Positions 32,001 to 53,876 of a stretch of 64,000 nucleotides of DNA are shown in pieces; the first letter of the stretch is position 1, and each line of letters starts with the position of its first letter. Position numbers and translations under genes: made by a program. The notes under the pieces were generated by a model. It was not told the origin of the DNA. It searched no databases and worked only from the letters and a program-made list of their open reading frames with translations. This DNA comes from a virus, in IMG/VR virus record IMGVR_UViG_3300025168_000054, positions 1-64,000 of that record; one strand, 5' to 3'.

Positions 32001-35000
32001 ACCTTGGGGTCGGCTTCGTCTACCGTTGTCGGTCAGCGCGCAGTGGGCAGCATCGGCCGGCAAGTCCTCGGAGTCATGGTCGAAGGTCTGCAGGGCCTTA
32101 AAGCAGAGGATTCCTCTGACTTCTTCGTCAAGTTCGCGGAGGCGCTTAAGTCGACAAGTCGCTTCGACGAGCCCATTCGTTTGGCCGTGACTAACAACCC
32201 GGAGGTTGTGGTCACGTTGGCAGAGGTGTTCAGCAAGCAGGCTCGAGGCAACCTGACTCAGGCAGACGTCACTGCCGTCGAAAACCTGCTGCGTAAGGCG
32301 GGTGTACTTTCAAGCGAGTTGAGTGCGCAGGACCTGCTGAAGGTCAACGGCGAGGAAACCAAGGCGGCACTGGCGGCAGATACGGTTGCTCGGGCCGATG
32401 AGTTCGTACCGTCTCCCGCAGCTACGAAGGCTACTCTGCCTGAGGAAGTTGCGCGGAGCTCTGCGCTCGAGGAGGCCGTCGAAAACATCGCCAAGGCTAC
32501 GGGCTCCGATGAAATCCGCAGGCTGCTCACGGACTTGAAGGACTCTGACCACGGGCGAAACATCGAGGCCGTGCTTCGGGCTATCGACATGATCGGCCCC
32601 GAACGACTCAAGAACATCTCACTGGTCATTGAGCCGGCAGAGGGCCAGTCCGCGGCGAAGCGGATGTTCGACTTCACCAACGAGACCATCCGCGTCTACG
32701 ACGACGCTCTCGAGTCCGGCGAGTTTACGCCTGAGGTGCTGTCGCAGTTGTGGCAGTCGCTGACTCGGTATGTGCCTGACGCTGAGGTCAAGGCCCTCAA
32801 GGACGAGTGGCTTAAGGAGCGCGACGCGTTCATGCGGGCGAACCCTGATCGCTTCGGTCGGGACATGACTCCGATTGGAGACTTTGTTCCAGACGAAATG
32901 ACGCTCCTGTCCTTTGACCAATGGATTGCTAACGCTGCCCGCAACGTAGTTCTCGCGGAAATAAACCCAAAAATCACAAATAACCCGGTCCTTCAGGCTT
33001 TCGTCGACACGGTGTCTGCGCTTGTCGAGCAGTTCAAGCTGCGCGGCAAGAAGGTCGGGGCCATGGCCCTGGAGTTCTTGAACAAGGGCAGCCAGAAGTA
33101 TCAGGAGATGGTGCGCGATGGCTCCGTGGACACGGCGATTCGCCGAGCGACGCCTGAGCAGTACTTCGGTGAGCAGCTCAAGTGGCAGGCGTTCCTCGAC
33201 AACCCTGACGCGCGCAAGCCCTCAGTCAAGGCCGTAGGCGAGATGGAAGCCATCGACGAGTTGATCGATGGTGCTGCTGAGACCACGGTTAAAACTGTTG
33301 AGACATTCCTTGCGGAACGCTTCGGTAAGCGCGCGATTCTTACCGAAGAAGGTTTTTCCCTTCTCAAGGCAGAGGCTGTCAAGGACGATGTCTCTCGCGT
33401 ACTGTTTTCGGGGGTCGCCGCGCGGCTGCAAGAGCTGGGTGTGTCGGCCCTCGATGCAGAGGGCAAGCCGCTGTCTCCCTTCCAGATGACGGAGCTGTTC
33501 AAGGAAGTGCGCCGCGGTTTGGTCGAAGAAGCCGCGGACGCGGCTAAGCAGGAAGGTGGCGAAAACTTCAAGAAGGTACAGCGGCTGGGCGAGTTGGAAA
33601 GCGAACTCGCCAAGTTGCGCGCCGCGGGTGAGACCGAAACTCCTCGCGTGATCAAGTTGAGCGAAGACATCAACGAGCTTGACGCTGACCTTCGGGCGAC
33701 GGCGGAAAGTGCCGGCGAATCGACGTCTCCGTTCCAGCGTATGCTTGAAACGAAAACTCAGTCAGAGCGAAAGGTGCTCGCACAGAGCATCCTCGACAGT
33801 GTCGTCGCTGTGATCGCAAAGATTGATGAGTCTCCTGGGCCGATGACTCTGGATGAACTGCTCGAGGGAGTTGAAGATCAGAGTGTCATCAACGAGGTCC
33901 GGCACTTGCTTGGCGTCGCCGGCAAGCGCGGTGACCTCTTGTCGCAAGTTCGAGATGACGGGCGCCTGCTCCTGGCAAGAGCCCCTGGCCGCGTAGTGCT
34001 TCCCGAAGAAGACCTTTACGTCCAGACGCTTCGGGCGGAGGCTGAAGGTCGCGCGTACGAAGCCGACGAACTCGCCGATGAGGTTGACAAGATCCTCGGT
34101 CTGAGGCCTGACATTGCTCGGGACGAAGCTCGTAAGCTGGCTTCGGGCTACCTCGAAGAGCTTCGACAGGCCGCAGCCACTGCTCGCCGTCAACGGCTTG
34201 AGCGTGGGGCTATCGACGCAAGTATGCTGGACGAGCTTTTGCTGAACGAGGCATCGTCTCTGGCAGCTGACGCCGCACGCACGGGTCTGCGGGCCGACCT
34301 CGATGTACAGATTGATGAGATCGTCGCCGCCGTCCCCGACGCAGGGACGGTGCCGTTCAACACGACGAGAAAGGTCTCTGACGACTTCGACATCGTTTCT
34401 TTCGAGTCAAACCCTGGGGTCGAGCAGGCCGCGTTTGCCTTGTCCAACGCGAGCAGCCTCAGAAAGAGCCCGCCGAAGAGCATCAAGAAGGGCGCGAACG
34501 AATCGGCCGAAGCGTTTGCTGCGCGGAGTAAGCAGCTCATGGCGACAAACCGCTCTGCGGCTATCACGCTGGTCATCGACATGTTCGAGGGTCTGCGCCC
34601 TTACATCGCGCTTCCGGCCGAGATTGTAGTCAAGCGCAACAAGGTCGATAAGACCATCTATCTAAAGGACGTCCTGCCTGGACAGGACTTTAGCAAGCTG
34701 CGGGTTTTGGATACCAAGGCGTTCTTGAAGAAGTACACCGAGCTGATCGAGGAAGCTCTCAAGGAGCAGGGGCTACTCGAAGAGGTCAAGTCACTCTCGT
34801 CGGCGATGCAGAAGAGCGAGTTCGACGACGCCGTCGCGCGTGCTCGTAAGCAGAAGTCCGTAGAGGCCGAGCCTGTGGTGGAGCCTGCGGCAGTTGAGCC
34901 TGCAGCCGCTCGGACGGCTACTGACGACCGGTTTGTGTTGAAAGCCCGTGAGATGTTTGACGACGGCAAGACTCCTCGTGCCGCGGAGAGTGTGCGAGAG

Positions 35001-38000
35001 GCCATCGAAAAGAACGCGGGATCTGGCGCCGCGAAGGCGTTCGGCGATGAGTACAAGTCCCTCAGAGACGCCGCTGTTCAAGCCCGTGTTCGTCAGGACG
35101 CCGCTGAGGCCACCACCGGTGCCGCTGAGCCTAAGGCGACTCCTTCTCCCACGGTTGCTTCGCCAACGACTACGCGGTCTTTGCCCAAGGCAGGAGAAAA
35201 GCACACGCCGCCGACGCCAGCAGAGGCTCGCGCAGAGACTGCTGCCGCGCCGAGGAACGAACGCGGTGTCTCACTGGGCAACCCGGCACCTTCCAGAGAT
35301 GACCTACCTAAGATCGAGACGGTCGTTAAGCCCTACCGCGAGATGGGCAAGCAGTCTCCTGAGACGTTGGCTGAGCACGCGAGTGCTCGTGGAATCGACC
35401 TCGCCGATCACTCGACGCCTGAAAGTCTCGCGAACGCTGTGGGTCAGGCAGACGTAAAGTCTGCGCGCGTGGCGCAGGCTGTGTCGGGTGACGCGCCTCC
35501 GGCCGCGGCCAAGGCGGCACCGCCTGAGGCCTTTGCCGCAGCGGCAGACATCACTGCCGCAGAGGCGAAGACCGTCAATGCGATAGACGCCATGGTCGAT
35601 GCGCTCGCACCGGAGAACGCAGACAAGGTCGCCAAGCGTGTTGCACGTCTCCAGAAGCTTATCGACAAGTCGGAAGAGATCGAGGCGCTTTCAGCCAAGC
35701 AGGTGGTCGACTACGTCTTTGACGACCTGGATGTTGGCGCGCGAGAGACTCTGGCGAACTCCGGGGCAATCGACGACATCGTCAAAGACCTGACGAGGAT
35801 TTTCAACCAAAACGTCGCGGACGTAAAGCGAGAGTCTCGGCGGCTTCGTCGAACCTTTGAGAGTCTGCAGAAGCTCGCCAAGAAGCTGGAAGGCAAGGAT
35901 CGTGAGCGGGCTCTCCGTGCTGCTGCCCGAGCGGAACGGCAAGCAACATCCATGGAGGAAGCTCTTCGCGAGCTCTTGAGGTCTGACCGGCTGGACGAGT
36001 TCGCCGATCTTCTCGAGACTGAGCGAGCAGCCGGCAAGGTTCGGCGGAAGGCAGAAAAGCAGGCCCGAGAAGAGGCCATCATCTCGTTCATCAGCCGTGG
36101 GGCACCTCCCCGCCCTCCAGGTACGCCTAAGACCCCGCGCAATCGCGGAGTAGATAAGGTCCCTAAGAACGTCAAGGGGATGGTGTATTTCCTCGACGAC
36201 TCACAGGCGATTATCTACGCGTTCAAGTCGGCAGATGCTGAGACAGGTCTCCACGAGATGGCGCACGTTTTGCGGCGCAACTTGCGGGACGCAGACCTCC
36301 AGGTTTCTTTGGGCTGGGTCAACTCTCAGCTGGAAGCGCGGGGCATGGAGAAGGTGCGCCTGGCTTACGGTGTTGACAGCCGGACGGGCAACTTCATTGG
36401 TCGAGGTGACTCTGTTCACTACGCCGAAGAGCTTTTTGCTGAAGGCTTTGAGCAGTACATGCGCGAGGGCGTGGCCCCGACGAAGATGCTCGAGAACGTC
36501 TTCAAGATCATGAAGGAGCTTCTGCACAACATCTTCGTCTCGGCCAAGCGACAGCCGGAGAAGATTGAAATCAGTCCTGAGATGTACGCGGTGTTTGACC
36601 GCGTCTTCGGGGCAAAGCAGACGTTCACGATGGACGACATGCCCGACGCGATGATGTTCCTCAACGTGCAGGACGACCTCGGTCGATCTGTCGTGGGCCT
36701 GGGTGGCCGGCTTGAGACTGACCTCATCCTTGAAGACACTGTGACAGGTCGTTTCCGCCAGCTTGAGATGAGCCTCGACGACTATCGCCGTCGCATGGGC
36801 AAAAGCGGCGAGGCGGGTATCGTCGGCAAGGTCGCGTCGAAGCTGCCTACTCCTAAGGCGGCTGTGGGTGGTCTCGGCTTGGGTTCACGAACCAGCCAGT
36901 ACCTTGACCCTGTCAGTAGCCGCGTGCTGTCTGCCGAAGACCGCATGCTTCTCAACAGGTTCCGCCGCGGTGAGATCGAAAGGTCTGATCTGCCCAACCG
37001 ACTTCTGCCTGAGATCGAGAAGGGCTTGCGTGTGACTGGTGAGGCGGCGGTGCTCGTTGGCTCGCTCACACTGAAGGCTGCGCGCCTTATGTACGGCGAC
37101 GATGCTTCTCGCGTCATCCGCACGTACAACCCGGCTCAAAGAGTCCACATGAAGGCGGGAGCGAGGGAGGGTGAGGAGTTCTCTAACGGCGCGTCAGTCT
37201 TGATCAACGACATCTCTCGACGCATGGGTGCCTCTGCCGAACGCGCGCTGAACGACATCATCAGCTACTTCTCAGGTCAGTCGGCGCAGCTGTTGACTGG
37301 GTCGGAGAGAGGTAAGAGACTCAATGCTACGAATGTAGACATCTTCGAGCACGTCTCGAGAATGTTCCACGACATGCTCTGGAGGATGGACCCAGAAGCG
37401 CGGGTTGCCTTGATACAAGCGGCAGAAAATCGTTTGAGCAAGCCGCTGCACGCGACAACTCAGGATGACATCCTTCCGCTGTCAGGTTTGTGGAACGGCT
37501 ACGTCGTCCGCAACCGAGCAACCCCAGAGAAGTCGGCGCTGTCATTTTCCGGGGAAGGAATCTTGCTGAGCAATGACTACATCGACGTAGTTAAGCCTGG
37601 ACTTGCGAAGGGTGGCTCTATCGAGATCGATAGTTTTTTGCAGGACACTCTCGGAGACCTCTATGTCGCAGTGACCGGGCAGCCCCTCAGTAAAGGTACG
37701 AAGGTTCCTCCCACAGCCTTGGATATGGCTGCGCTGCTCGTGCTTCACTCCGGCGGCTCGATGCTGAAGGCTTCCGATGGAAGCGCGGTTCACCTTGACC
37801 AGGTCTTGAAGGCCGCCGGCGTGAGCCGCGGAGAGGCTTTGATCAAGGGCGTTACCGCCGAAGTCAACGGCTCGACCGTCAAGGTCCCCGGACTCATGAC
37901 GACGTCAGTCGCCGTTGAGCGTCGCTTGCCAGTGCTCATGTCTCTGGGGCATGCCGGGTTTGCGTCAGGCATGCTCGACGACGCGGCGAAGTGGGGCTTT

Positions 38001-40667
38001 GGTCTTACCGGACGAGAGTACCGAGCGTTCATGCGCTACGTCACAGGTCAGCAAGGGGCCATGTCTTTGAGCGATATCGAAATGGCGAAGAGCGTCATTA
38101 GCCGCTTCGGTATTTCGGCAGAGTTTGTCACCAACTCACGTCGTCATGGGCAGTATTACCTCCCCAAGCAGGCTCGAGACGCGCTGCGAGACCAGATGTC
38201 GCAGGCAGCACGGCAGTTTGATTACGGCGAGAAGGGTGGGAAGAGCTCCGTCGCAAGAGACGCCTTCGGCATCTACAACTCGTTGCTGTACTCAACGATG
38301 GTGTTTGGGGCAGTTGTAGTCAAGCCGTTCTACCGGCTGGCGTCGTTGATCGACTTGGGTCTCGGTGCTCTGGGTATGGGGGGCGCTCGCGCAGCCACAG
38401 CTGCGGTCACACGAGCAGGCGTAAGTACCTTGCTGGCGTTTGCTTACGAAGGGTTCCCGCTACTGTCTGCGGAACGCGCCGCAGAAGCTGTGGGGCTTGC
38501 CGGAGACGCCGGCCGCGCGGTTGTTCGACGTGTTCGAGGTGACGTAGATTCCGCGAAAACTGTGTTGGATTTCAAGCAGCAGATTCGCGATGTAGCAGCC
38601 GAGTCTGGAGACAACCTTGCTCGTATGATTACCGAGACTTCAGCCAGCGCGAAGTACCGCCCGGAAGTGCGCCCCATCATGGAAGCGCGAGCAGACATGA
38701 TCTTCGTCATCAATGGTCGTCCTTACCGGGCTTCTGACCTTCGGCGCATCTTCGTTCGGTCTGGCCTGTACAACAACATGTTCAAGTCCATCAAGGCCAC
38801 GTACATGGCGGAGGGCGGTTCGCTCACTGAAGTCATGGACCGGGTGAAGCGCAGCGTGAAGGAGAAGTACGGAGATGACGCGGCTAACGTGAAGATGCTC
38901 GACAGCTTCCTCGAAGAAACGACAGACACGAAAAATCCGTTCAACATCATGGGCGGTATCCGCGGAGCCGGTGACATGGCTCTTCGTCACGGCCTTGAGT
39001 CTGCCGACGCGTGGGCAGACCTTGAGCGCACAGGTCTGGCGGTCACATTCATGGAGTTGGGCCACTCACCGCAGACGGCGGCCCGTATGGTCGTTGAGGC
39101 GGTTTACGACTACCGAGGCTCTATGACCTCGGCTGATCGCAGCATGTTCAACAAGGTGACGCGACCGTTCTTTGCTTTCACCAAGAACGCGATTCACCAT
39201 CTCACAAACATGATGAGCTCTCCTCTCGGGCGGTTTTACGCTCGTTCGATGGCGAAGCTGCCGTTCCTTTCAGCTGACGCTGCGACTGCGGTGCTGTACG
39301 AGTTCCTGGTCGGACCTTACGGAATCAACACCTCCGCGATGAACTCAAGCGAGGTCAACGCGTACTACGACATGAGAAACTTCCTCGAGTACGGTCTGGG
39401 CGAGCAGGTTGACCGAAATACTCTGCAGCAGTACCGAGAGATTCTGCCGGATGAGGCAAAGGACATTAGCGACCAAGAGTTGATGGACCACGACTTCGGC
39501 GGATGGACCATCCGCAACGGGTACAACGGCTACGACAACGTGCCGGAAGACGCTCGAGTGTCTGTGCGTGCTTTGATCGCCAGCAGGTCGAAGCTGTACG
39601 CAAAGGGCCGGTACCTGTACGTTGCGAAGGTTCTACAGGACGAAGAACTTCGGGAGGAGTTCGTCAAGCTTGGTGGAGCTATGGCGGTTCAAGATGAGCC
39701 CAGCCGTCGCGGGCAAGCTTCCTATATGTACAACCGCTATCCGACGATTCAGGTTCCTTTTCCGGTGCTGAACGCCAGCGCGCAAGAGGCGATGCGGCTT
39801 GGCCTCAGTGATTCCGTTTACTGGATGCTGCCGGATAACTTCGTCCACTCAGGCATCGCCGAAGCCAGCGCCATGATGGCTACAGCGTTGGTTGTTCTCG
39901 ATGAATCTTTGAATGCAATCCCAGGGGGAAAGCCATTCTTCCCCGACGTCGCGGCAACGCGTGCCCAGCGTGCGGCAGCGCCTTTGATAGACATACGCGG
40001 GTACGGCAGTCCGATTGCTGCCGACATCATCAAGGGCGGCGCCGCGTTGTTCGGTAAAGGCAACTTGTTCGTCGAAGTCGACCCGCTCATCGCACGCGTG
40101 CTGCAGGGGTCAATGATTCCTGTCGCTAACGCCGACGACATCGACGAAGATGACCTGGGTATCTTGCTTCAGCTCGCCCAGTCTGACCCGGAGCTTTACA
40201 ACCAGGCGATCAAAGTCTTCAGCCAGATGATGGGCGGCAGCGTGGGCCGAGAAATACAGTTCCCTGCCTTTGCAGACGAAGTTCGAGCTGCGCGCATGAT
40301 TGTCAAGGACGGTAGGCGAGAAGTCGTGTTTGCCAATCGCGGCGGTGTCTTTGACCGTGAGTTCCTCGAAAAGGGCGCTAAAGACTCAAGCGAGAAAGCC
40401 GTCCGAAAGAAGCCGTTTCTGGTTGGTAAGTCCGCGGTGCTGTTTAAGATCACGCCGCTGGGTCAGCTCAATCAGGCGCTCTTGCAGTACCGTAAGACTC
40501 CTCAGGAAGGTCAGCTCGAAGCACAGAAGGAGCTTCGGTCGGAGATTATCCGCTTCATCACAGCCCAGGGCCGACAGGTCGGTATGCGTACTTCCGGGGC
40601 TGACGAAGAGCGCGTGACAGAAACAATCGAGCGGGCTGCGAACAAGGTCTTCGAAGAGTACAAGTGA
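26082..40667 (+). CDS. Giant (4861 aa) polyvalent ejection protein with N-acetylmuramidase (DUF3380-like) and zincin-like domains
   Basis: AVTKAESTG...AFGEFQVTG...AKEYYG (~27400-28080); LHEMAH...EELFAEGF (36252 on); hydrophobic segments ~28750-29280; C-terminal YDY...RPFF helical region. Confidence 0.8.
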   Translation: MSYLTSLEKRASFPLRPAEQKEEVKVDEVAAPAAPAFTSTVPGTGIRPISDLLPSEGKTPEYSFGDVPTPKENPFDIAFGSREKVAALYSEIVDTTARKRYEAGQLAEKYNFDDQEEEGFFVGLAKEAGETLMGREILPREPSDEKVVLKRTDVDSYMVESPVSVSGRPSPVTGLSQLVLGASAIDPESRPARELKKQGRTAKKIPNAEDIRVNVTNERLRAAFISQAKDKESGAQSYSAYVQRIADNLAKEGKDATFRDAQLFIAGNVIARLPKPAGQGDPGIVVAQRDAVNLVSQYTDPSFTRGLAQTLPMAPLRLGVAGSEKLGDRIDPSRVFDPYVEEDTEMKRSDPLGARARGPMTASEAERAQFLEQRMFFPVDFEYDEDKSLKTSTTAAQTMNDLIVDGSLILGGAEGNFDDMYGERSVTEVYSSKVISGESDQNRLIALAAKAGIPVDKTYAVTKAESTGNPASFAFNLHLGQHNPKDPSNPRNRTAEQEQRLRQLMASEGLKVNFESRAAQNYYGKNARRALDLAAAINPVAAVQGGAFGEFQVTGKYGDALGYVKETFPEVETDEQAAGVFLNMFKQSPGVVGDDMFVRWFQRNPDAQKAANDGDISGLAKEYYGSLSDPEEVGISAAEKARREKQVETRDGWVGRATNASEAYLGGMIDSARKATRPEAQSAETSTDDPPTSLSQQGLLENESVFTSEESREDISQVEEALQLRAVEVETGVSTVMTMFGDMAQAPTPGSSAFIAAVAPIKDAKENDAQLYTVVKDNRDAPMGTGYRNVANFLFERKVNTTLGERSLSDLSAEETKRLKAEARQEAFAVVTSAQTENLWRTSFYTSFDYLLGEEADSVFAAMAPRIEVMGRTKDGFVFRQEGDVLAAAAALDAPAVLGQSFNIGVIGNYLFPAIEAAYTEYEQGNRGAASLAFAVTGETVAAVAGSFGAYIPYSNDIGVEFLNEVHRAGVQGVAERQNFVEVGLSSGADVFGFAAESLLETEMGRETLDMLIASGSLPIPYELTSPGRRHLAVVDMARATGTAVGMLGGLVAAVGVPDATDFLLIPKVMKTGRRAYRLIKDIDLSVDGLEALTETKTFSRAVGSRSEMFLHGEARRTTLAQLAATLEQTSAKDLQGASSDEIATLLQLVDDILDTSRKQDATDGVFRNDLTASVKIEVDLEAESALRLRAETQTPAGEAARYALDKDLSKDVHATIVELIKEASASKDPRRVELAEALGERLKASQLREAVSLSPGQTDAFLSAAEEVVGPKKVFGFTERIEILRDALLLIDPASDGMAIRKKVFSRRVTEDRLSRVANTDTADLPGFVDPTLSKGLDRYGPVTEEALKKSLSTVRLADAKKGEILQARTKLQGWHDRFKAAVADNSILDPQVRSVLLDEFKAEKLGDSNYRVFSNSDRSRQSSYYRGVIKGIEGVAGDATNAAFGQNILARGLQGVLAAADSRGAAYKRFAVALVDKRKLEALDSSMDAEKFLAGGETALRMRRFRYALQSATKEGVMQIMLSNPVMSRLIPEGIRAQYAVSASARMAKRQEMLRQGKSPLDLTNLLKREALTKLSQRLAVATTSGDQAMAAKLTADIDEVKSPQFFARVSQWMDDSITEVKTAAAEGREPNLPGIELPVGIDPAIVNRMDMDPKPLSATRKFFRESYSPAFGFGAVEEVPAGPLTAELRTRRARLSTSEKLANEVVLDHMLRYMAGVDRTDTRVIAERKVTDFLEKRLTVRSIGSYDFESRRVELRTQLDDLSEQIAQRRFGQSVNDLEPRARVQVRSDAFNVIIPLMTDWEASLILARSSEELKEILANARLIGPRLPGEEAGDVILSTLFQDPEFMARLRKTGGATRRRRKAKPAAKAAPETAETTEAPALPAASAVDTAAATDRPARRTRRAAVTIDKEAAPTGQVYVAKVDELDEGVPDSVLEAESAFGNSALLWSSLSDRMGGLLEQSEVLRGSPTLGSASSTVVGQRAVGSIGRQVLGVMVEGLQGLKAEDSSDFFVKFAEALKSTSRFDEPIRLAVTNNPEVVVTLAEVFSKQARGNLTQADVTAVENLLRKAGVLSSELSAQDLLKVNGEETKAALAADTVARADEFVPSPAATKATLPEEVARSSALEEAVENIAKATGSDEIRRLLTDLKDSDHGRNIEAVLRAIDMIGPERLKNISLVIEPAEGQSAAKRMFDFTNETIRVYDDALESGEFTPEVLSQLWQSLTRYVPDAEVKALKDEWLKERDAFMRANPDRFGRDMTPIGDFVPDEMTLLSFDQWIANAARNVVLAEINPKITNNPVLQAFVDTVSALVEQFKLRGKKVGAMALEFLNKGSQKYQEMVRDGSVDTAIRRATPEQYFGEQLKWQAFLDNPDARKPSVKAVGEMEAIDELIDGAAETTVKTVETFLAERFGKRAILTEEGFSLLKAEAVKDDVSRVLFSGVAARLQELGVSALDAEGKPLSPFQMTELFKEVRRGLVEEAADAAKQEGGENFKKVQRLGELESELAKLRAAGETETPRVIKLSEDINELDADLRATAESAGESTSPFQRMLETKTQSERKVLAQSILDSVVAVIAKIDESPGPMTLDELLEGVEDQSVINEVRHLLGVAGKRGDLLSQVRDDGRLLLARAPGRVVLPEEDLYVQTLRAEAEGRAYEADELADEVDKILGLRPDIARDEARKLASGYLEELRQAAATARRQRLERGAIDASMLDELLLNEASSLAADAARTGLRADLDVQIDEIVAAVPDAGTVPFNTTRKVSDDFDIVSFESNPGVEQAAFALSNASSLRKSPPKSIKKGANESAEAFAARSKQLMATNRSAAITLVIDMFEGLRPYIALPAEIVVKRNKVDKTIYLKDVLPGQDFSKLRVLDTKAFLKKYTELIEEALKEQGLLEEVKSLSSAMQKSEFDDAVARARKQKSVEAEPVVEPAAVEPAAARTATDDRFVLKAREMFDDGKTPRAAESVREAIEKNAGSGAAKAFGDEYKSLRDAAVQARVRQDAAEATTGAAEPKATPSPTVASPTTTRSLPKAGEKHTPPTPAEARAETAAAPRNERGVSLGNPAPSRDDLPKIETVVKPYREMGKQSPETLAEHASARGIDLADHSTPESLANAVGQADVKSARVAQAVSGDAPPAAAKAAPPEAFAAAADITAAEAKTVNAIDAMVDALAPENADKVAKRVARLQKLIDKSEEIEALSAKQVVDYVFDDLDVGARETLANSGAIDDIVKDLTRIFNQNVADVKRESRRLRRTFESLQKLAKKLEGKDRERALRAAARAERQATSMEEALRELLRSDRLDEFADLLETERAAGKVRRKAEKQAREEAIISFISRGAPPRPPGTPKTPRNRGVDKVPKNVKGMVYFLDDSQAIIYAFKSADAETGLHEMAHVLRRNLRDADLQVSLGWVNSQLEARGMEKVRLAYGVDSRTGNFIGRGDSVHYAEELFAEGFEQYMREGVAPTKMLENVFKIMKELLHNIFVSAKRQPEKIEISPEMYAVFDRVFGAKQTFTMDDMPDAMMFLNVQDDLGRSVVGLGGRLETDLILEDTVTGRFRQLEMSLDDYRRRMGKSGEAGIVGKVASKLPTPKAAVGGLGLGSRTSQYLDPVSSRVLSAEDRMLLNRFRRGEIERSDLPNRLLPEIEKGLRVTGEAAVLVGSLTLKAARLMYGDDASRVIRTYNPAQRVHMKAGAREGEEFSNGASVLINDISRRMGASAERALNDIISYFSGQSAQLLTGSERGKRLNATNVDIFEHVSRMFHDMLWRMDPEARVALIQAAENRLSKPLHATTQDDILPLSGLWNGYVVRNRATPEKSALSFSGEGILLSNDYIDVVKPGLAKGGSIEIDSFLQDTLGDLYVAVTGQPLSKGTKVPPTALDMAALLVLHSGGSMLKASDGSAVHLDQVLKAAGVSRGEALIKGVTAEVNGSTVKVPGLMTTSVAVERRLPVLMSLGHAGFASGMLDDAAKWGFGLTGREYRAFMRYVTGQQGAMSLSDIEMAKSVISRFGISAEFVTNSRRHGQYYLPKQARDALRDQMSQAARQFDYGEKGGKSSVARDAFGIYNSLLYSTMVFGAVVVKPFYRLASLIDLGLGALGMGGARAATAAVTRAGVSTLLAFAYEGFPLLSAERAAEAVGLAGDAGRAVVRRVRGDVDSAKTVLDFKQQIRDVAAESGDNLARMITETSASAKYRPEVRPIMEARADMIFVINGRPYRASDLRRIFVRSGLYNNMFKSIKATYMAEGGSLTEVMDRVKRSVKEKYGDDAANVKMLDSFLEETTDTKNPFNIMGGIRGAGDMALRHGLESADAWADLERTGLAVTFMELGHSPQTAARMVVEAVYDYRGSMTSADRSMFNKVTRPFFAFTKNAIHHLTNMMSSPLGRFYARSMAKLPFLSADAATAVLYEFLVGPYGINTSAMNSSEVNAYYDMRNFLEYGLGEQVDRNTLQQYREILPDEAKDISDQELMDHDFGGWTIRNGYNGYDNVPEDARVSVRALIASRSKLYAKGRYLYVAKVLQDEELREEFVKLGGAMAVQDEPSRRGQASYMYNRYPTIQVPFPVLNASAQEAMRLGLSDSVYWMLPDNFVHSGIAEASAMMATALVVLDESLNAIPGGKPFFPDVAATRAQRAAAPLIDIRGYGSPIAADIIKGGAALFGKGNLFVEVDPLIARVLQGSMIPVANADDIDEDDLGILLQLAQSDPELYNQAIKVFSQMMGGSVGREIQFPAFADEVRAARMIVKDGRREVVFANRGGVFDREFLEKGAKDSSEKAVRKKPFLVGKSAVLFKITPLGQLNQALLQYRKTPQEGQLEAQKELRSEIIRFITAQGRQVGMRTSGADEERVTETIERAANKVFEEYK

Positions 40668-46395: not shown

Positions 46396-46694
46396 CACTC
46401 TTCCCACCCGATGTAGCGGAACGTCGGCGTGTTCTGCCCCATCCAAGCTCCGCTGGTGTTGAACGAAAACCACTCAGCGGCGTCCGAATAGCTGCATTCT
46501 CCGTCCTCCATGATGGCTTCAACGCACATCTCAGCGTCGTAAACGGCCACTACGAACCCAGGCTCTCTCGGCCAGTGGTCCTCAGGGGTGTCGGTCATGC
46601 CCACAATGCAGGGGTCATAGACGCTGCGTGGTTCGAGCAGCAGCGCGTCAGGGTTGTAGTTGGCCAGGGCTTCGAGGATCTCTTCGTAGGTCAT
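46395..46694 (-). CDS. Conserved phage hypothetical protein
   Basis: D.CIVG...VAVYD...A.EWF.FN..GAWMG..TP pattern of a widespread phage family. Confidence 0.75.
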   Translation of the reverse strand: MTYEEILEALANYNPDALLLEPRSVYDPCIVGMTDTPEDHWPREPGFVVAVYDAEMCVEAIMEDGECSYSDAAEWFSFNTSGAWMGQNTPTFRYIGWEE

Positions 46695-47161
46695 TCCTCA
46701 CCACCTTCGTCGCGGACGATGATGCGGCCCCACACCTTGTAGTCGTCACCTGGTACACGAGCGACGCCCTTGACCTTGTGGTACTCGTCAGCGCGGGTGT
46801 CCCAGACCCAGGCGATCTTACCCTCGCGGACGAACCCGTCGATCATCTCAAAGGTCGGTCGACCGCAGGTTGTGTCCATTACACCGACGTACTGCCCTGG
46901 TCGGATGATCCCGTGGAAACGAGGGGTGCCGTCCCACAGGCGGCCAGCCACCACAGAGTTCGGCCACGCCTTCCAACCGCCGGCATTCGCAGCGCGGCTC
47001 CTGTAGTCGTCGCGGCCTGCGACCACCGTGATGGCATGCTCAGGGTACGCCTCACTCAATCCTTCGGTCAGACTGTCACGCCACTTGTCGACAGTCTGGT
47101 CTCCGTCCAACCGGTCGTGTGCCAGGAAGAACCTGTAGTCTTCGTCTTTCGTCTCTGTCAT
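46691..47161 (-). CDS. Possible nucleoside-deoxyribosyltransferase/TIR-like Rossmannoid protein
   Basis: Start ATG 47161 with AGGAG; FFLAH first strand and GRPTFEMIDGFVREGKIAWVW resembling G.GT..E...A...GK.V of NDT/SLOG folds. Confidence 0.4.
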   Translation of the reverse strand: MTETKDEDYRFFLAHDRLDGDQTVDKWRDSLTEGLSEAYPEHAITVVAGRDDYRSRAANAGGWKAWPNSVVAGRLWDGTPRFHGIIRPGQYVGVMDTTCGRPTFEMIDGFVREGKIAWVWDTRADEYHKVKGVARVPGDDYKVWGRIIVRDEGGEE

Positions 47162-47221
47162 ACCACTCTCCTTTGTGTAACAGTGTAGTAAGCCGTTCCG
47201 TGCCTTTGTCAAACAGTTGTA

Positions 47222-50044
47222 TCACACTTCTACCCAGGTGCGGCCCACGTCCGCCTCACAGGTAAACGTCACCGGCCAACCCGGTACGTCGATCGTCATG
47301 CACTCCGTCATCTTCTTCTGCGCCCACTCCGCCAAGTGCTCAGGCACCTCGACGATGAGTGAGTCATGGACTTGCGCGGTCAAGCCTGTGCCTGGTCCCC
47401 ACTGCTGAAAGGGGAACGCCTCCAGCACGCGCTGCTCGGCGATGGCCATGACGGCGGCTTCGCACGCGAGGATGGGAAAGTTGACGACCTCGTTTTTCTT
47501 GCCGTCCTGCAAGCCTCCGCTTCGTCGACCGAACAGGGGGTCTTCCATGTAGCCCTGCTTGTCGTAGAGCATGAGCATGTCTTGCCAAGCCATCATCCAG
47601 TCGGTCTCGGCGTCGTGCCAGACCCGGTCGAAGAACCGAACCTGGTTGAGGTCGAACTGAAGGTACGGCAGGTCGGTGTGTAGATACTCGCTGCCGTCCT
47701 TGCGCTGCCGAAAGCCCGTGAGCTCGGTCGAACGAATCACGGAGTGCTTGGTCTCAGCAGAGGCCCAGTAGATCGACGCATAACGGTACGTCTTGGTCAG
47801 CTCTCGAAGCTGGCCCGCCTTGCCTTTCTTGCTTGGCTTATGCGTGGCCTTCAAGCTGAAGCCCTTTGTCCAACCTGAAGCCTGTTCAAAGTCTTTGCCG
47901 AACAAGTCGTGCGCCAACCAGCAGTGCGGGTCGAGGTCATCAGCGAAGCAGTCGAGCAGTCGTTGGATGCCCCAGTAGTTGGCGGTAATGACCAAGTGCG
48001 CCGCACTGAGGTCGCAACCCACCAGCACGTGGCCCGGCGCTGCGCAATACAACGACCTCACGCCACCCAGGTCTTTGCGGCTGGATTGGTTCTGCATGTT
48101 GGGTCCGCTCGACGAGAGGCGCCCAACAGCGGTCGTGTGACTGTTCCACGAGGAACGCACGCGCCCGTCGGGATGTAGTGACCCGCCGTCCTTCAGGGGG
48201 CGTAGGCCATACAGCTGCGTACCCAACACCTTGGTCCTGACCCGTCGATACTGGCGCAAGGTCAGAAGGAACTGCCGCTGCTTCTTGTTGATGTCAGGGC
48301 TGGCCATGTGAGACCGCAGCACCGCATCACCTGTACCCGGCAGACCAGACTCGGTGTAGAAGTCTTTGGCGTCCATGCCGTAGGGGATGCCCAGGTCCCA
48401 CCGCTCATACAGCAGGTCACGGACCTGGTCGAACGAGCCCGGATTGAAGTCCTGGTTCGCCTTGCGCTTCGCCCCCACTGCTTCGGCAAGACCTTGAAGC
48501 TGGTCGTAGAGGTCTACGGCGACCTTCTCAAACCGGTCGGTCAGCAGCGACGCCTTCTTCTGGTCGACGTAGATGCCGTTCTGGTGCATCTGCACACACA
48601 TGTCCTGTCGCGCATGGTCGAGGTTCCGCAGGTCCCAGGGACGGGCAGAGGGCCAGCTGACCGGCTTCGCCCACTCGGGCAACGGCTTGTCTGCTCCGTT
48701 GGCGTTGGCGGATCTACGCAGCGGCTCTGTGATGCGAGCGTTGACCACGGTGTCGTACTCGCAGTACGTCAACCGCTCCTTGTCGAGCACCTTCCCGCCG
48801 CTGTTCTTCTCACCGCTCTCGCTGGTCTCCCACTTGTGTACGTCAGTCAGCCGACGACCAGTGGGCTTGAGACCTTTGGGCAGGTCAGGGTGGGTGAAGC
48901 GAGCATCGAACAGTGTGTCGTGAGTCGGTTGCGGATTGACCCCGAGCCAGTGCTCAGAGACTTGGCGATCGAAGTACCCCGCGTTGTGCCCCACCTTGGT
49001 CTTGCTGGTGTTCGTGAAGAACTCCCGCAGCACTTCCTTGATGGCCTCCTCCCCGCTCGGCGAGTAGTAGCGCCGACCCGGCGAGTCTGTGCCCATGATG
49101 TTGATACCGACGCTACGTGCCAGCTGGAAGGGCTCCTCCCAGGGCATCGTTGGATTCCCGTGCCTGTCCAGGTCAGGAGTTGCAATGGCCAAGCACCGCA
49201 CACCGATGTCGCGGACGTTGATACCGTCGGTCTCGTAGTCGTAGACCCAGAAGGGTGAGGGGACTGCCAGCCATTCTCGGAGCTCGTGCGCGGTCGGCTG
49301 CTCTGATAGTTCGGGCTCAAGCCACCGAAGTACGTTGTTGAACCAGCGGAAAGCCTTACCCAGCGTGGCGTAGAACTGCGGGCGTAACTTCGGAGAGTGC
49401 TTGACATAGCCAGGGTCGTAAGTTGAAACGACTTTAACTTTCCAATCATTGCTCGACTGAGTCCAGTCGTAGGCTTGCCAGGTCAAACGGCTGACCTTGA
49501 CTTCTCGCATGTCGCCCTCGAGATGGGACATGCTTGAGGTGGTGTCGAGCACGCGCTGCGCTGCCGTACTGCCCAGCGGGAGGATGTATCCGTAGGCTGA
49601 GAGGTGAGATTGCAGGTAGGGGGCGCAGCAGTCAGCCGGGTGAGGTAGCGCTTCTTCGACCTGACGCTTTGCCTCGGCCGCGGACGTGCCTTCCTTACGC
49701 AGCTTCTTCGTCAGTGCTTTACGCCGACGGCGTAGTTGCGCCTCCATCTTCTTCCACCCGTCTCTCGGAGCGCAGGCCGTCACGAAGAACAAGTCGATCA
49801 TCGACCTGTTCAGCCCCGTGGCTCTCAAAGCACGGTCCCACTCGGCACCGTCCAGCCCGCTCAAGGGGCGGCTGTGCCTCACGTCTTCGCGCTTGGGCGC
49901 TTCAAGCACGGCAGCGACTGTCGTGCTCTCGTGTATCTCGGGGGGCACAGGCTCCCACCCGTCTCCGACGAGACAGCCGCCCGGCCCCATGGGGCACTGA
50001 TTGCACTTGGCGCCCCTCTTTCGGGGGTCGAATCGACTACTCAT
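47222..50044 (-). CDS. Family A DNA polymerase with N-terminal family-4 UDG-like domain and 3'-5' exonuclease
   Basis: Start ATG 50044; Exo I DYETDG, Exo II HNAGYFD, Exo III YCEYD; GRLSSSGPNMQN; motif A DLSAAHL; motif B RELTKTYRYASIY; motif C VHDS. Confidence 0.92.
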   Translation of the reverse strand: MSSRFDPRKRGAKCNQCPMGPGGCLVGDGWEPVPPEIHESTTVAAVLEAPKREDVRHSRPLSGLDGAEWDRALRATGLNRSMIDLFFVTACAPRDGWKKMEAQLRRRRKALTKKLRKEGTSAAEAKRQVEEALPHPADCCAPYLQSHLSAYGYILPLGSTAAQRVLDTTSSMSHLEGDMREVKVSRLTWQAYDWTQSSNDWKVKVVSTYDPGYVKHSPKLRPQFYATLGKAFRWFNNVLRWLEPELSEQPTAHELREWLAVPSPFWVYDYETDGINVRDIGVRCLAIATPDLDRHGNPTMPWEEPFQLARSVGINIMGTDSPGRRYYSPSGEEAIKEVLREFFTNTSKTKVGHNAGYFDRQVSEHWLGVNPQPTHDTLFDARFTHPDLPKGLKPTGRRLTDVHKWETSESGEKNSGGKVLDKERLTYCEYDTVVNARITEPLRRSANANGADKPLPEWAKPVSWPSARPWDLRNLDHARQDMCVQMHQNGIYVDQKKASLLTDRFEKVAVDLYDQLQGLAEAVGAKRKANQDFNPGSFDQVRDLLYERWDLGIPYGMDAKDFYTESGLPGTGDAVLRSHMASPDINKKQRQFLLTLRQYRRVRTKVLGTQLYGLRPLKDGGSLHPDGRVRSSWNSHTTAVGRLSSSGPNMQNQSSRKDLGGVRSLYCAAPGHVLVGCDLSAAHLVITANYWGIQRLLDCFADDLDPHCWLAHDLFGKDFEQASGWTKGFSLKATHKPSKKGKAGQLRELTKTYRYASIYWASAETKHSVIRSTELTGFRQRKDGSEYLHTDLPYLQFDLNQVRFFDRVWHDAETDWMMAWQDMLMLYDKQGYMEDPLFGRRSGGLQDGKKNEVVNFPILACEAAVMAIAEQRVLEAFPFQQWGPGTGLTAQVHDSLIVEVPEHLAEWAQKKMTECMTIDVPGWPVTFTCEADVGRTWVEV

Positions 50045-50420
50045 CGTTGTTCTCCCAACGGCATCGCCGTTTGTTTGGGAAGCCTTTGTAGACTTCGATC
50101 TCGTGGTGTGATGCGTACCTTCGGATGGCCTGCTCAAGAGCGACAGTCGTGCGCGGCCAACCAACACGGTCTCGGATGATTGGGTACGACATGCGTTCGG
50201 TATTGCGCAGTCGTATGGCCTCGATCAACATCGACTCTCGTAGGAACCTCTTGGGGCTGTTGCTTCGGTCAATCTTGCCAAGGTGCTGATGAATCTGCTT
50301 TCTCAACGTACTGACGTTGACGTCCATGTCTTCGGCGACGTCCTTCCACTTCTCACCATGCTCCACCCGAGTTTTTGCTCGGCGGAGCATAGGAAACGTC
50401 CACGTACGTTGAGGCGCCAT
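50037..50420 (-). CDS. Tandem HTH DNA-binding protein
   Basis: WKDVAEDMDVNVSTLRK and MSYPIIRDRVG helices; start ATG 50420. Confidence 0.65.
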   Translation of the reverse strand: MAPQRTWTFPMLRRAKTRVEHGEKWKDVAEDMDVNVSTLRKQIHQHLGKIDRSNSPKRFLRESMLIEAIRLRNTERMSYPIIRDRVGWPRTTVALEQAIRRYASHHEIEVYKGFPNKRRCRWENNDE

Positions 50421-52482: not shown

Positions 52483-52890
52483 TTATTCGTCAATCTCCCA
52501 GTGATGCTGGGTACCGGGCTCATGGCATCGGCGGATATTACGAACGCTGCCCCCCGTCAGACCCAGCTTTTCGCTCAGGAAATCAACAACTTGTTTGACA
52601 TTGAACTCCTTGCAGGAGAACAAGTCGAAGCTCACATGTCCTCGCAGAGGCCACGTATGAATACTTCCGTGCGACGTGGTCAGGATTACAGTGCCCGTGA
52701 CTCCTCCGTCGTCCTCGCCGTTCTCGACCATAGGGTCAAGCGGCACGGCGACCATTTCCGCAGGCTTCAGAATCTGCATACCTACCATCTCGACCAGTTC
52801 GTTGAGCACCGCACCGATCAACTCAGGGTCGTTGAGGCGCTGCGACTCTTGGGTCCAGGCGTCAATGATTACGTGTCTACCTGTTTTCAT
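52483..52890 (-). CDS. speD: Pyruvoyl-dependent S-adenosylmethionine decarboxylase homologue
   Basis: GRHVIID, GGVTGTVILTTSHGSIHTWP, DLFSC; start ATG 52890. Confidence 0.88.
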   Translation of the reverse strand: MKTGRHVIIDAWTQESQRLNDPELIGAVLNELVEMVGMQILKPAEMVAVPLDPMVENGEDDGGVTGTVILTTSHGSIHTWPLRGHVSFDLFSCKEFNVKQVVDFLSEKLGLTGGSVRNIRRCHEPGTQHHWEIDE

Positions 52891-52895
52891 GATGA

Positions 52896-53876
52896 TTACT
52901 CCGGGCCGTACTGGCATAGTTCAAACGCGCCGCACTTACCGTAGCGGTGGTAGCAAACGAGCTCGCTCTGAGCCATTTGCCAGTCCCCCTCGGTCACGTA
53001 CGCTCTCTTGTGGTTGACGAGCTGGTTGCCCAGCGACATCGCCCTCGAGTAAATCTGCCGAGCCAACTGTTCGTCACGCCAAGGTGTGGCGGGTACGTGC
53101 TGACGACTCACGGTCCAGGGGCTGCGCCGCTGCACCAAGTTCAAGATGACCCCTCCGAAGTCCTCGTACAACTGCTGGCCCATGATGCGGTTGACGGCGA
53201 ACTGGCCGTCCATGGCGTACTGCTGAGCACGAGTCTTGCTCACACTCCCGCCGGTCACCTTGTGATCCCAGATGTACGTTCGCCCGTCGGAGCTATGCTT
53301 CATCACGAGGTCGAACCGCTTGGTCAATTCGATGGGCTTGCCGTGCTGCAGCGCCGGAACGCCACGAACAGGCTCCTCAAGCCCAGGGCAATCCAGCAAC
53401 GTAGGCTCTGAGAGATTCTTGTCGAGCCATAGGCCGAAGTCTCCTTCGTGGTTGTGCCCCAAGGTCAGCTTGACCTGGTTCTCGACAGACACCACACGGT
53501 CAGAGACATAGGGCTCCTTCTGAAGATATCGACGGAAGACATCAAGCGTCGTGCCGATGTAGGGGTGAGCGTCTACGCCTTCGAGCTCTCGCCGACGCAC
53601 CCACTCACGAACTGCCGCATCGGGAGGTAGGAAGTGGTCAGGGTCTGTGACGTGCTGGCCTTCGTACTCGAAGCCTCCCTGCTCGCAGCCCTTCTGAGCG
53701 TAGTAGTGAGCGAGCACGGTGTGGCCCATTGACCCCAGTGTCAGCGCCTCGGCGTTGATGAACTCACGCTGCTTGACGTTAATGATGAACCATAATCGGT
53801 CACACTTAAAGGCTGGTCCCCAGAAGGACCAGCCTGTTGTGCTTCGACCGGTGTCGATGAGGATGGGCTCAGGCAT
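52896..53876 (-). CDS. PD-(D/E)XK exonuclease, Cas4/AddB-like with 4-Cys cluster
   Basis: C..R...GSMGH, RFDLV, IWDHK, C-terminal CYHRYGKCGAFELC. Confidence 0.85.
   Translation of the reverse strand: MPEPILIDTGRSTTGWSFWGPAFKCDRLWFIINVKQREFINAEALTLGSMGHTVLAHYYAQKGCEQGGFEYEGQHVTDPDHFLPPDAAVREWVRRRELEGVDAHPYIGTTLDVFRRYLQKEPYVSDRVVSVENQVKLTLGHNHEGDFGLWLDKNLSEPTLLDCPGLEEPVRGVPALQHGKPIELTKRFDLVMKHSSDGRTYIWDHKVTGGSVSKTRAQQYAMDGQFAVNRIMGQQLYEDFGGVILNLVQRRSPWTVSRQHVPATPWRDEQLARQIYSRAMSLGNQLVNHKRAYVTEGDWQMAQSELVCYHRYGKCGAFELCQYGPE

Follow-up and report, generated by a model that had tools for sequence, protein, structure and literature searches.

Family A DNA polymerases (PolA) have been sorted into 19 clusters, and the steric gate (position A2) is among the highly conserved positions of their motifs (Czernecki et al. 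2023, PMC10201439). Two groups in which PolA is fused to a uracil-DNA glycosylase (UDG) have been described, the N4-like fusions, with an inactive UDG, and the SPO1-like/SP15-like fusions, with an active one (PMC10201439; PMC13697223). The subject of the present analysis is a gene for a UDG-like/3′-5′ exonuclease/PolA fusion on the minus strand of a 64,000-nucleotide stretch of viral DNA (the window; positions 1 to 64,000 of the IMG/VR virus record IMGVR_UViG_3300025168_000054), whose product, P0001, belongs to a large, undescribed Pol I-family branch of PolAs from uncultured phages. In P0001 the gate glutamate and the minor-groove glutamine, Glu710 and Gln849 in Klenow numbering, are replaced by His683 and Leu859, and across the relatives these two positions are strictly coupled to a third, Glu862. 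Glu710 and Gln849 count as textbook fixed points in enzymes of the Pol I type and are engineering targets for polymerases that write RNA or xeno nucleic acids (XNA). In a large natural clade of abundant phages of sea and soil both are replaced, in every case with a compensating glutamate, and this clade represents a ready-made evolutionary experiment on the rebuilding of a sugar gate and a minor-groove check.

Of the described systems, the N4-like UDG-PolA proteins (cluster #17; N4 gp39) have the same domain order as P0001, a family-4 UDG-like domain followed by the 3′-5′ exonuclease and PolA, and on both sides the fusion appears as a phage replicase encoded near helicase, exonuclease, primase and Sak4-like genes. 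The catalytic motifs of the N4 UDG are degenerate, as they are in the subclade of P0001. The two proteins share 30% identity over ~190 aa (BLASTP, E=2e-13), and P0001 does not cluster with N4. The gate of N4 is Glu (DFASLEDR) and the B3 residue of the N4-like enzymes is Phe, whereas P0001 has His683 and Tyr755; unlike the N4-like group, the family of P0001 also retains four iron-sulfur (Fe-S) cysteines, and most of its members keep the UDG catalytic motifs. The SPO1-like/SP15-like fusions (SPO1, SP-10, SP-15, YerA41, phiLo) combine UDG, exonuclease and PolA as well, and the motifs kept by most members of the present family suggest an active glycosylase like that of the SPO1-like enzymes, although those of P0001 itself are not intact. 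Phages of the SPO1-like/SP15-like group carry T-modified DNA, usually made via 5-hydroxymethyl-dUTP (5hm-dUTP) from a thymidylate-synthase homologue (Missoury et al. 2026, PMC13697223), whereas the genome of the present phage contains no ThyA-family gene for such a pathway. By their description, the SP15-like proteins are set apart from the 940-residue P0001 by a length of ~1300 aa, two large inserts and a C-terminal domain, and they have a canonical E710-type gate and a Phe on the O-helix (PMC13697223), in contrast to the His gate and Tyr of P0001.

Bacterial Pol I (Klenow, Bst, KlenTaq) shares with P0001 the fold, the catalytic aspartates, the equivalents of R668, R754, K758, Y766, N845 and H881, and the motifs Exo I–III. 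At 17–20% identity, P0001 differs from these enzymes by E710→His, Q849→Leu, A852→Glu, T666→Val, E883→Ser and F762→Tyr, by its UDG-like domain, and by a β-hairpin inserted in the fingers (residues 775–791 of its AlphaFold2 (AF2) model). The DpoZ proteins of Z-genome phages (phiVC8-like, Wayne-like) are, as here, a PolA clade with a specialized active-site signature, but they pair with PurZ and have Phe at B4 (PMC10201439), whereas in the present phage PurZ (PF00709) is absent and B4 is Tyr759. A His gate together with a Glu at position N845+7 is shared by the P0001 family and divPolA1, which, unlike P0001, is a thumbless accessory protein of ~441 aa with an inactivated exonuclease and no UDG, encoded beside a regular replicase (Virol J 2024;21:200, PMC11348598). 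Identity of P0001 with divPolA1 or divPolA2 was considered and rejected, as these are different proteins. In the searchable literature we found no paper mentioning E710H, E615H, E658H or E480H, or a His gate in PolA.

A strictly coupled triad in the polymerase active site

The active-site substitutions of P0001 all fall within the 3′ third of its 2,823-nt gene (Table 1). HMMER alignment with Taq is ungapped over three motifs (DLSAAHLVI/DYSQIELRV, NFPILA/NMPVQG and QVHDS/QVHDE) and places His683 at the gate glutamate and Leu859 at Gln849; hmmalign to E. coli Pol I likewise equates D678 with D705, L679 with Y706, H683 with E710 and R642 with R668. Motif 6 and motif C were mapped from a phmmer alignment to Taq, the C-terminal half of Klenow, T7 and N4 having dropped out when these were aligned globally to the hidden Markov model (HMM) of the family; motif B was mapped by pattern matching only, which gives R747=R754, K751=K758, R754=N761, Y755=F762, Y759=Y766 and W760=G767. 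In motif 6, N855 (=N845) is kept and Glu862 occupies the position of A852.

Relatives were collected in two ways. A word-indexed search recovered more than 226 metagenomic homologues at 44–87% identity, all of them UDG-PolA fusions and many located on 65–82-kb viral contigs; the strings D-L-x-x-A-H-L and N-F-P-I-L-A are present in every one, and the substituted residues are fixed in 120/120 full or partial homologues. HMMER, run exhaustively over 1.84 billion cluster representatives, gave 406 clusters at E≤1e-30. In the top 150 of these 406 representatives (50%-identity clusters, 31–59% identical to P0001), the gate is His in 73 and Glu in 67, and the substitutions at all three coupled positions are carried by at least 73. 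The substitutions are therefore not due to chance, and they are fixed in the clade.

When the His-type and Glu-type sequences are compared column by column, exactly three positions show zero overlap: 683 (His versus Glu), 859 (Leu/Ile versus Gln) and 862 (Glu versus Ala/Gly). The combination H+(L/I)+E is found in 188 of the 243 sequences with data and E+Q+non-E (with one S in place of Q) in the other 55, and there is no mixed case. H683, L859 and E862 are thus a strictly coupled triad, which is new in this analysis. Further positions partition the two types nearly completely, namely 640, 813, 696, 816 and, in motif B, 754 (Arg versus Gln) and 758; at 640, the equivalent of T666, the His-type sequences have V, P or I and the Glu-type ones T or S. 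Some changes are not specific to the His type: the residue at the F762 position is Tyr throughout the family, whichever the gate, and the positions of Y706 and G767 vary freely in both types. A second covariation within motif A, in which Q708→Ala/Ser goes with R712→Val, occurs in 18 sequences and in the His-type background only; the pair present in P0001, A681/V685, is confined to the subclade of this phage and a few other His-type sequences. Ser or Ala stands in place of E883 across the whole UDG-PolA family, Glu-type and His-type alike, which leaves the Glu type with three active-site carboxylates (D705, D882 and E710); the His type likewise has three (D705, D882 and the new E862).

These results bear on a reading of the letters made before any search, in which the motifs had been quoted and a set of substituted residues listed. 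Translation located every quoted motif where that original prediction had put it, the alignments with Taq agreed that the gate Glu is His and the minor-groove Gln is Leu, and the register of motif B contains the Tyr at the 762-equivalent position. Covariation within a clade, for which a check had been proposed there, was also seen, for H683, L859 and E862 across the 243 sequences. The list itself stands in part: H683 and L859 are specific to the His type, whereas Tyr762, Y706→L and G767→W are not, and Glu862, T666→V and the family-wide Ser/Ala at E883 had been overlooked.

The branch lies well away from known phages. None of six tblastn probes (P0001 and its motif A region, a Glu-type representative and three further His-type representatives) had, among 50,697 phage records, a match of more than ~29% identity overall or, within the motif A region, of more than 41%, and P0001 reached at most 25%. 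In virus Rctr197k, motif 6 contains the canonical Gln and motif A was not matched by the pattern; in Caulobacter phage Kuura neither the gate nor the motif 6 site was readable. Just one family member has a name at NCBI, a 73-kb contig that was binned into a Planctomycetota metagenome-assembled genome (MAG), the contigs of which are phage-sized, with no host seen among them. No cultured member of the His-gate branch was found.

Phylogenetic trees were built from the exonuclease and polymerase columns after removal of the co-varying ones. The best free trees need 4–5 changes of the H/E label, and the supported branches force at least 4 in the 66-row tree. The His-type sequence P0228 is nested in a Glu-type clade with a Shimodaira–Hasegawa-like approximate likelihood ratio (SH-aLRT) support of 96–99, and in each of six segments of the protein its closest neighbour is the Glu-type P0144. 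This speaks against an exchange of the palm, so that recombination is an unlikely cause of its placement; for the nested P0248 and P0225, recombination is possible. A single H/E split is not rejected by approximately unbiased (AU) tests (p=0.159, 0.165), so the free trees suggest no more than that the triad may have originated repeatedly within the family. The pairing also recurs in an unrelated lineage. In divPolA1 (441 aa, Flavobacterium phage immuto_3-5A) and 120 relatives, motif A reads D[FY]DGYHLR and motif 6 reads NYxMQS[LM]ET, that is, a His gate and a Glu at N845+7 with the Gln849 equivalent retained, and these motifs support an apparently independent instance of the His/Glu pairing.

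Predicted enzyme activity and a proposed wiring of the gate

P0001 resembles a working family A polymerase in nearly every respect outside the triad. It scores 105.7 bits against Pfam DNA_pol_A (PF00476; cut-off 34.3) and 27.6 bits against DNA_pol_A_exo1 (PF01612; cut-off 23.6), and it matches PHROG 17, "DNA polymerase", at E=2e-76. Its AF2 model is of high confidence, with a predicted local distance difference test (pLDDT) score of 94 and a predicted template-modeling (pTM) score of 0.91, and the top Foldseek matches of the model are Klenow, Bst and Taq (E ~1e-25, TM ~0.8 on the target). Profile score, fold and catalytic residues are thus those of a family A DNA polymerase, and the two features of the family that P0001 lacks are the steric-gate Glu (A2) and the Gln of motif 6. 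Across ~260 sequences, down to ~31% identity, D678, H893, D894, R747, K751, Y759 and R642 are invariant or nearly so, and the equivalent of N845 is also kept family-wide. The same is true of D269, E271, D359, Y427 and D431, so that P0001 has the carboxylates and the Tyr of Exo I–III that characterize proofreading PolAs. In the homologues P0098, P0113 and P0114, an HNH intein is inserted exactly within motif B, between R-Y-A and C-I-Y-W.

The genomic position of the gene is compatible with a replicative role. It lies within a minus-strand replication module that comprises a primase-helicase, an SbcC-like protein, a Dam-like methyltransferase, a Sak4-like annealing protein, a PD-(D/E)XK exonuclease and a helicase, and the replication genes beside polA are syntenic across 80 related viral loci. 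Among the annotated open reading frames (ORFs) of the genome, P0001 is the sole DNA polymerase recognized. Because the catalytic and exonuclease residues are conserved, the fold is confident, inteins target motif B and the replication module is syntenic, P0001 is read as a live enzyme.

On these grounds we favor, with a probability of roughly 60%, the interpretation that P0001 is the active, proofreading replicative polymerase of the phage and that its triad represents an alternative wiring of the sugar-gate/minor-groove network, with ordinary deoxynucleoside triphosphates (dNTPs) still used. In Bst, residues Q797, R615, E658 and D830 (Klenow Q849, R668, E710 and D882) are adjacent and in electrostatic contact (review, PMC10520511). 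In the His-type enzymes, the network that Arg668, Glu710 and Gln849 form beneath the incoming sugar and the base pair at the primer terminus would have been rebuilt as one unit. The imidazole of H683 would provide the steric block under the sugar C2′ against a 2′-OH and would presumably hydrogen-bond the invariant Tyr759 (Y766), while E862, one turn along helix Q from position 859, would supply the lost carboxylate and orient H683, Arg642 or both. L859 would pack against the His ring, the minor-groove hydrogen bond that Gln849 makes on the template side would be lost, and the intact exonuclease could offset any resulting loss of fidelity. Ordinary DNA would most likely be copied from ordinary dNTPs. 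The identities of the residues, their strict coupling, the conserved catalytic residues and the lack of known modified-nucleotide pathways are observations, whereas the His-Glu contact, the retained sugar selectivity and the consequences for fidelity belong to the model that we infer.

Several points weigh against this interpretation. The contacts among H683, E862, R642 and Y759 are conjectural, and the presumed dNTP selectivity is deduced from side-chain size. A nucleotide pathway possibly resides among the functionally unassigned genes of the phage. If the 4–5 concerted switches in the trees are real, they would argue for positive selection of a changed property over neutral equivalence. The divPolA1 set, with its 120 sequences at least 69% identical and its motif register established by pattern only, counts as a single observation.

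Nucleotide selectivity and the question of unusual DNA

An unlikely alternative, yet one with evidence of its own, is that the triad shifts the selectivity of the enzyme for the sugar or for nucleotide analogues, either toward tolerance of 2′ substituents, which His might hydrogen-bond and not exclude (incorporation of ribonucleotides, rNMP, or of 2′-modified nucleotides), or toward rejection of chain-terminating analogues to which a PolA of the Tyr762 type would otherwise be open. Either effect would be of selective advantage and was possibly gained repeatedly. The gate position sets the discrimination against ribonucleoside triphosphates (rNTPs) in Klenow, Taq and Bst (PMC10520511; PMC10201439). 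Tyr at the F762 position, here family-wide, is a residue that makes PolAs accept dideoxynucleotides (ddNTPs). The nesting of P0228 inside Glu-type clades is in line with repeated gain, and the lack of any intermediate among the 243 sequences suggests selection for the full set. Against such a shift, His should match Glu in the Cβ/Cγ bulk on which gating depends, the equivalents of Y766 and Y762 are kept, and the AU tests leave room for a single origin. There is thus a small chance that the triad is a repeatedly evolved specificity switch that alters the sugars or analogues accepted, a natural second solution to sugar gating. Such a switch could possibly confer tolerance of 2′-substituted nucleotides, rejection of chain terminators made by the host, or bypass of abasic or minor-groove-altered sites arising from the phage's own UDG. 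If selectivity does differ between the two types, the clade would be a source of new scaffolds for use in biotechnology and would add a variable to the nucleotide warfare between phage and host; if it is the same, the "invariant" residues would be one of two interchangeable solutions.

Somewhat more doubtful still is the idea that the pocket was rebuilt to suit non-canonical DNA, either a modified dNTP or a hypermodified template, after the manner of the SPO1-like and SP15-like fusions and of DpoZ, with a modification possibly based on polyamines from the phage itself. The UDG-PolA fusions of SPO1, SP-10, SP-15 and YerA41 accompany T-modified genomes (PMC13697223; PMC10201439). The present genome has three polyamine-type genes, for an AdoMet_dc-like decarboxylase, a deoxyhypusine-synthase-like enzyme and an enzyme of the arginase family, the Dam-like methyltransferase lies near polA, the conserved gene that follows polA has a weak likeness to the nucleoside-deoxyribosyltransferase/TIR fold, and many genes are unannotated, ~60% of those of the phage being without assignable function. 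The structure of Pol I speaks against the idea, as positions of the E710/Q849 type face the sugar C2′ and the minor groove and not the C5/N7 major-groove edge, and to our knowledge the base modifications of phages sit in the major groove. Hundreds of contigs of the clade appear to come from standard metagenomes, which also speaks against it; DNA of YerA41 and RP13 cannot be amplified by commercial polymerases (PMC13697223).

Gene content points the same way. A profile search of the complete 79,958-bp record found no gene of the ThyA family (hm-dU, hm-dC and hypermodifications derived from them), ThyX, PurZ (2-aminoadenine), TGT/DpdA (7-deazaguanines) or dUTPase, and in five other His-type genomes that share the triad and are 92–100% complete, no gene for the ThyA family, TGT or dUTPase was found; in terms of profiles, PF00303 and PF00692 are absent from the genome and the five relatives, and PF02511 and PF00709 from the genome. 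No additional nucleotide-metabolism enzyme emerged when the early genes and those for replication were scanned with Pfam and PHROG. The decarboxylase is present in 5 of the 80 related His-type loci and the methyltransferase in 20, so that neither tracks the triad, and the small gene downstream of polA stands beside Glu-type polymerases as well. The AdoMet_dc-like decarboxylase is accordingly an accessory trait of the lineage, unlinked to the polymerase triad. A DNA-modification module around polA was considered as a candidate and rejected, its parts not being co-conserved across loci. The original prediction, which was right to call P0001 a live enzyme and not a decaying one in view of its conserved catalytic and exonuclease residues, its confident fold and the inteins in motif B, had gone on to propose a pocket adapted to a non-canonical base, sugar or template; the genes of the known pathways being absent, gene content lends that proposal no support. 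Active-site substitutions alone are poor evidence for modified DNA.

That P0001 is a degenerate or non-replicative PolA relic, retained for example only to bind DNA, is hardly credible: the usually invariant E710, Q849, E883, Q708 and R712 are all replaced and the UDG motifs are degenerate in this subclade, but the metal-binding aspartates, the remaining active-site residues and the Exo motifs are conserved in ~260 sequences, and the fold, the synteny, the inteins in motif B and the status of the protein as the only polymerase recognized among the annotated ORFs all speak against decay.

The gene, its UDG-like domain and the surrounding genome

The source genome, a complete virus record in IMG/VR, measures 79,958 bp, has a GC content of 60% and carries a terminal repeat of 128 bp. 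Genes for portal, terminase, major head protein and endolysin, together with a giant virion-type ORF, mark it as a tailed phage; the first 1,000 residues of the giant ORF are without a tblastn match in the 50,697 phage records. The mechanically called ORF of the polymerase is longer than the gene given in Table 1, the start of which, an ATG, is backed by the N-termini of homologues.

Table 1. Positions of the polymerase gene, its motifs and other genes of interest (window coordinates unless marked as genome coordinates)
Feature	Positions	Strand	Remarks
UDG-like/3′-5′ exonuclease/family A DNA polymerase gene	47222..50044	(-)	940 aa, P0001; start ATG at 50044, stop codon 47222-47224
Mechanical ORF of the polymerase	47222-50167	(-)	
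N-terminal family-4 UDG-like domain, residues ~5-235	49340..50032	(-)	Pfam UDG, alignment, motif tabulation
UDG motif A, EAPK	49892-49903	(-)	
UDG motif B, T-Y-D-P	49412-49423	(-)	His replaced by Asp
3′-5′ exonuclease domain	48635..49282	(-)	Exo I-III intact; translation
Exo I, YDYETDG	49223-49243	(-)	
Exo II, GHNAGYFD	48968-48991	(-)	
Exo III, YCEYDT	48749-48766	(-)	
TGR-type motif, reads VGRLSS	48110..48127	(-)	R642 = Klenow R668, kept; V640 = T666
Motif A, DLSAAHLVI	47987..48013	(-)	D678 = catalytic D705; H683 at steric-gate E710; HMMER to Taq, hmmalign, family tabulations
Codon of His683, CAC	47996-47998	(-)	Translation check
Motif B/O-helix, RELTKTYRYASIYW	47765..47806	(-)	Pattern register against Klenow RRSAKAINFGLIYG
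Motif 6/start of helix Q, NFPILACEA	47456..47482	(-)	Ungapped alignment to Taq NMPVQGTAA
Codon of L859	47468-47470	(-)	At Q849
Codon of E862	47459-47461	(-)	At A852
Motif C, QVHDS	47360..47374	(-)	H893, D894 (=H881, D882) kept; E883 equivalent is Ser
Small gene directly downstream of polA	46691..47212	(-)	Conserved core ~143 aa; tblastn and HMM searches
AdoMet_dc-like pyruvoyl decarboxylase gene	52483-52917	(-)	
Giant ORF	26082-40667	(+)	4,861 aa
Deoxyhypusine-synthase-like gene	genome 76542-77516	(-)	Beyond the window
Arginase/agmatinase-family gene	genome 77630-78625	(+)	Beyond the window

The N-terminal domain is recognizable as a glycosylase by its architecture more than by its catalytic motifs. 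Residues 41–225 of P0001 score 22.7 bits against Pfam UDG, slightly below the cut-off of 24.3, and PF03167 is annotated on most homologues. The Fe-S cysteines C14, C17, C91 and C140 are kept and are invariant or nearly so in the family alignment. UDG motif A of P0001 reads EAPK and not E[AS]PG, and motif B has lost its His; E[AS]PG and HP are kept by most relatives of both gate types, and the combination of EAPK with YDP is found in the subclade of P0001. Going by these motifs, this phage probably has an inactive glycosylase and its relatives an active one.

Inteins with HNH or LAGLIDADG domains are also present in P0019 and in many representatives of 1200–2000 aa. The closest Glu-type sister loci (L085–L089) are on contigs of 29–73 kb that CheckV rates as 35–53% complete, among them a 73-kb record with terminal repeats; the Glu-type sister polymerases may come from larger or different phages than the 65–82-kb His-type genomes.

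The small gene directly downstream of polA has neither a Pfam or PHROG match nor a Foldseek match below 1e-3. It follows polA in 69 of the 80 His-type loci and in 5 of 7 Glu-type loci, is absent from N4, and thus travels with the polymerase family, outside the triad. Its product has the invariant motifs F-L-A-H, G-R-D-D-Y, G-G-W and H-G, and its AF2 model (pLDDT 91) bears a weak likeness to the TIR/SEFIR and nucleoside 2-deoxyribosyltransferase folds (VIA Z 6.0–6.5); an ESM Atlas score of 0.81 is taken as a lead only. The protein could be a polymerase accessory factor or an enzyme acting on nucleotides.

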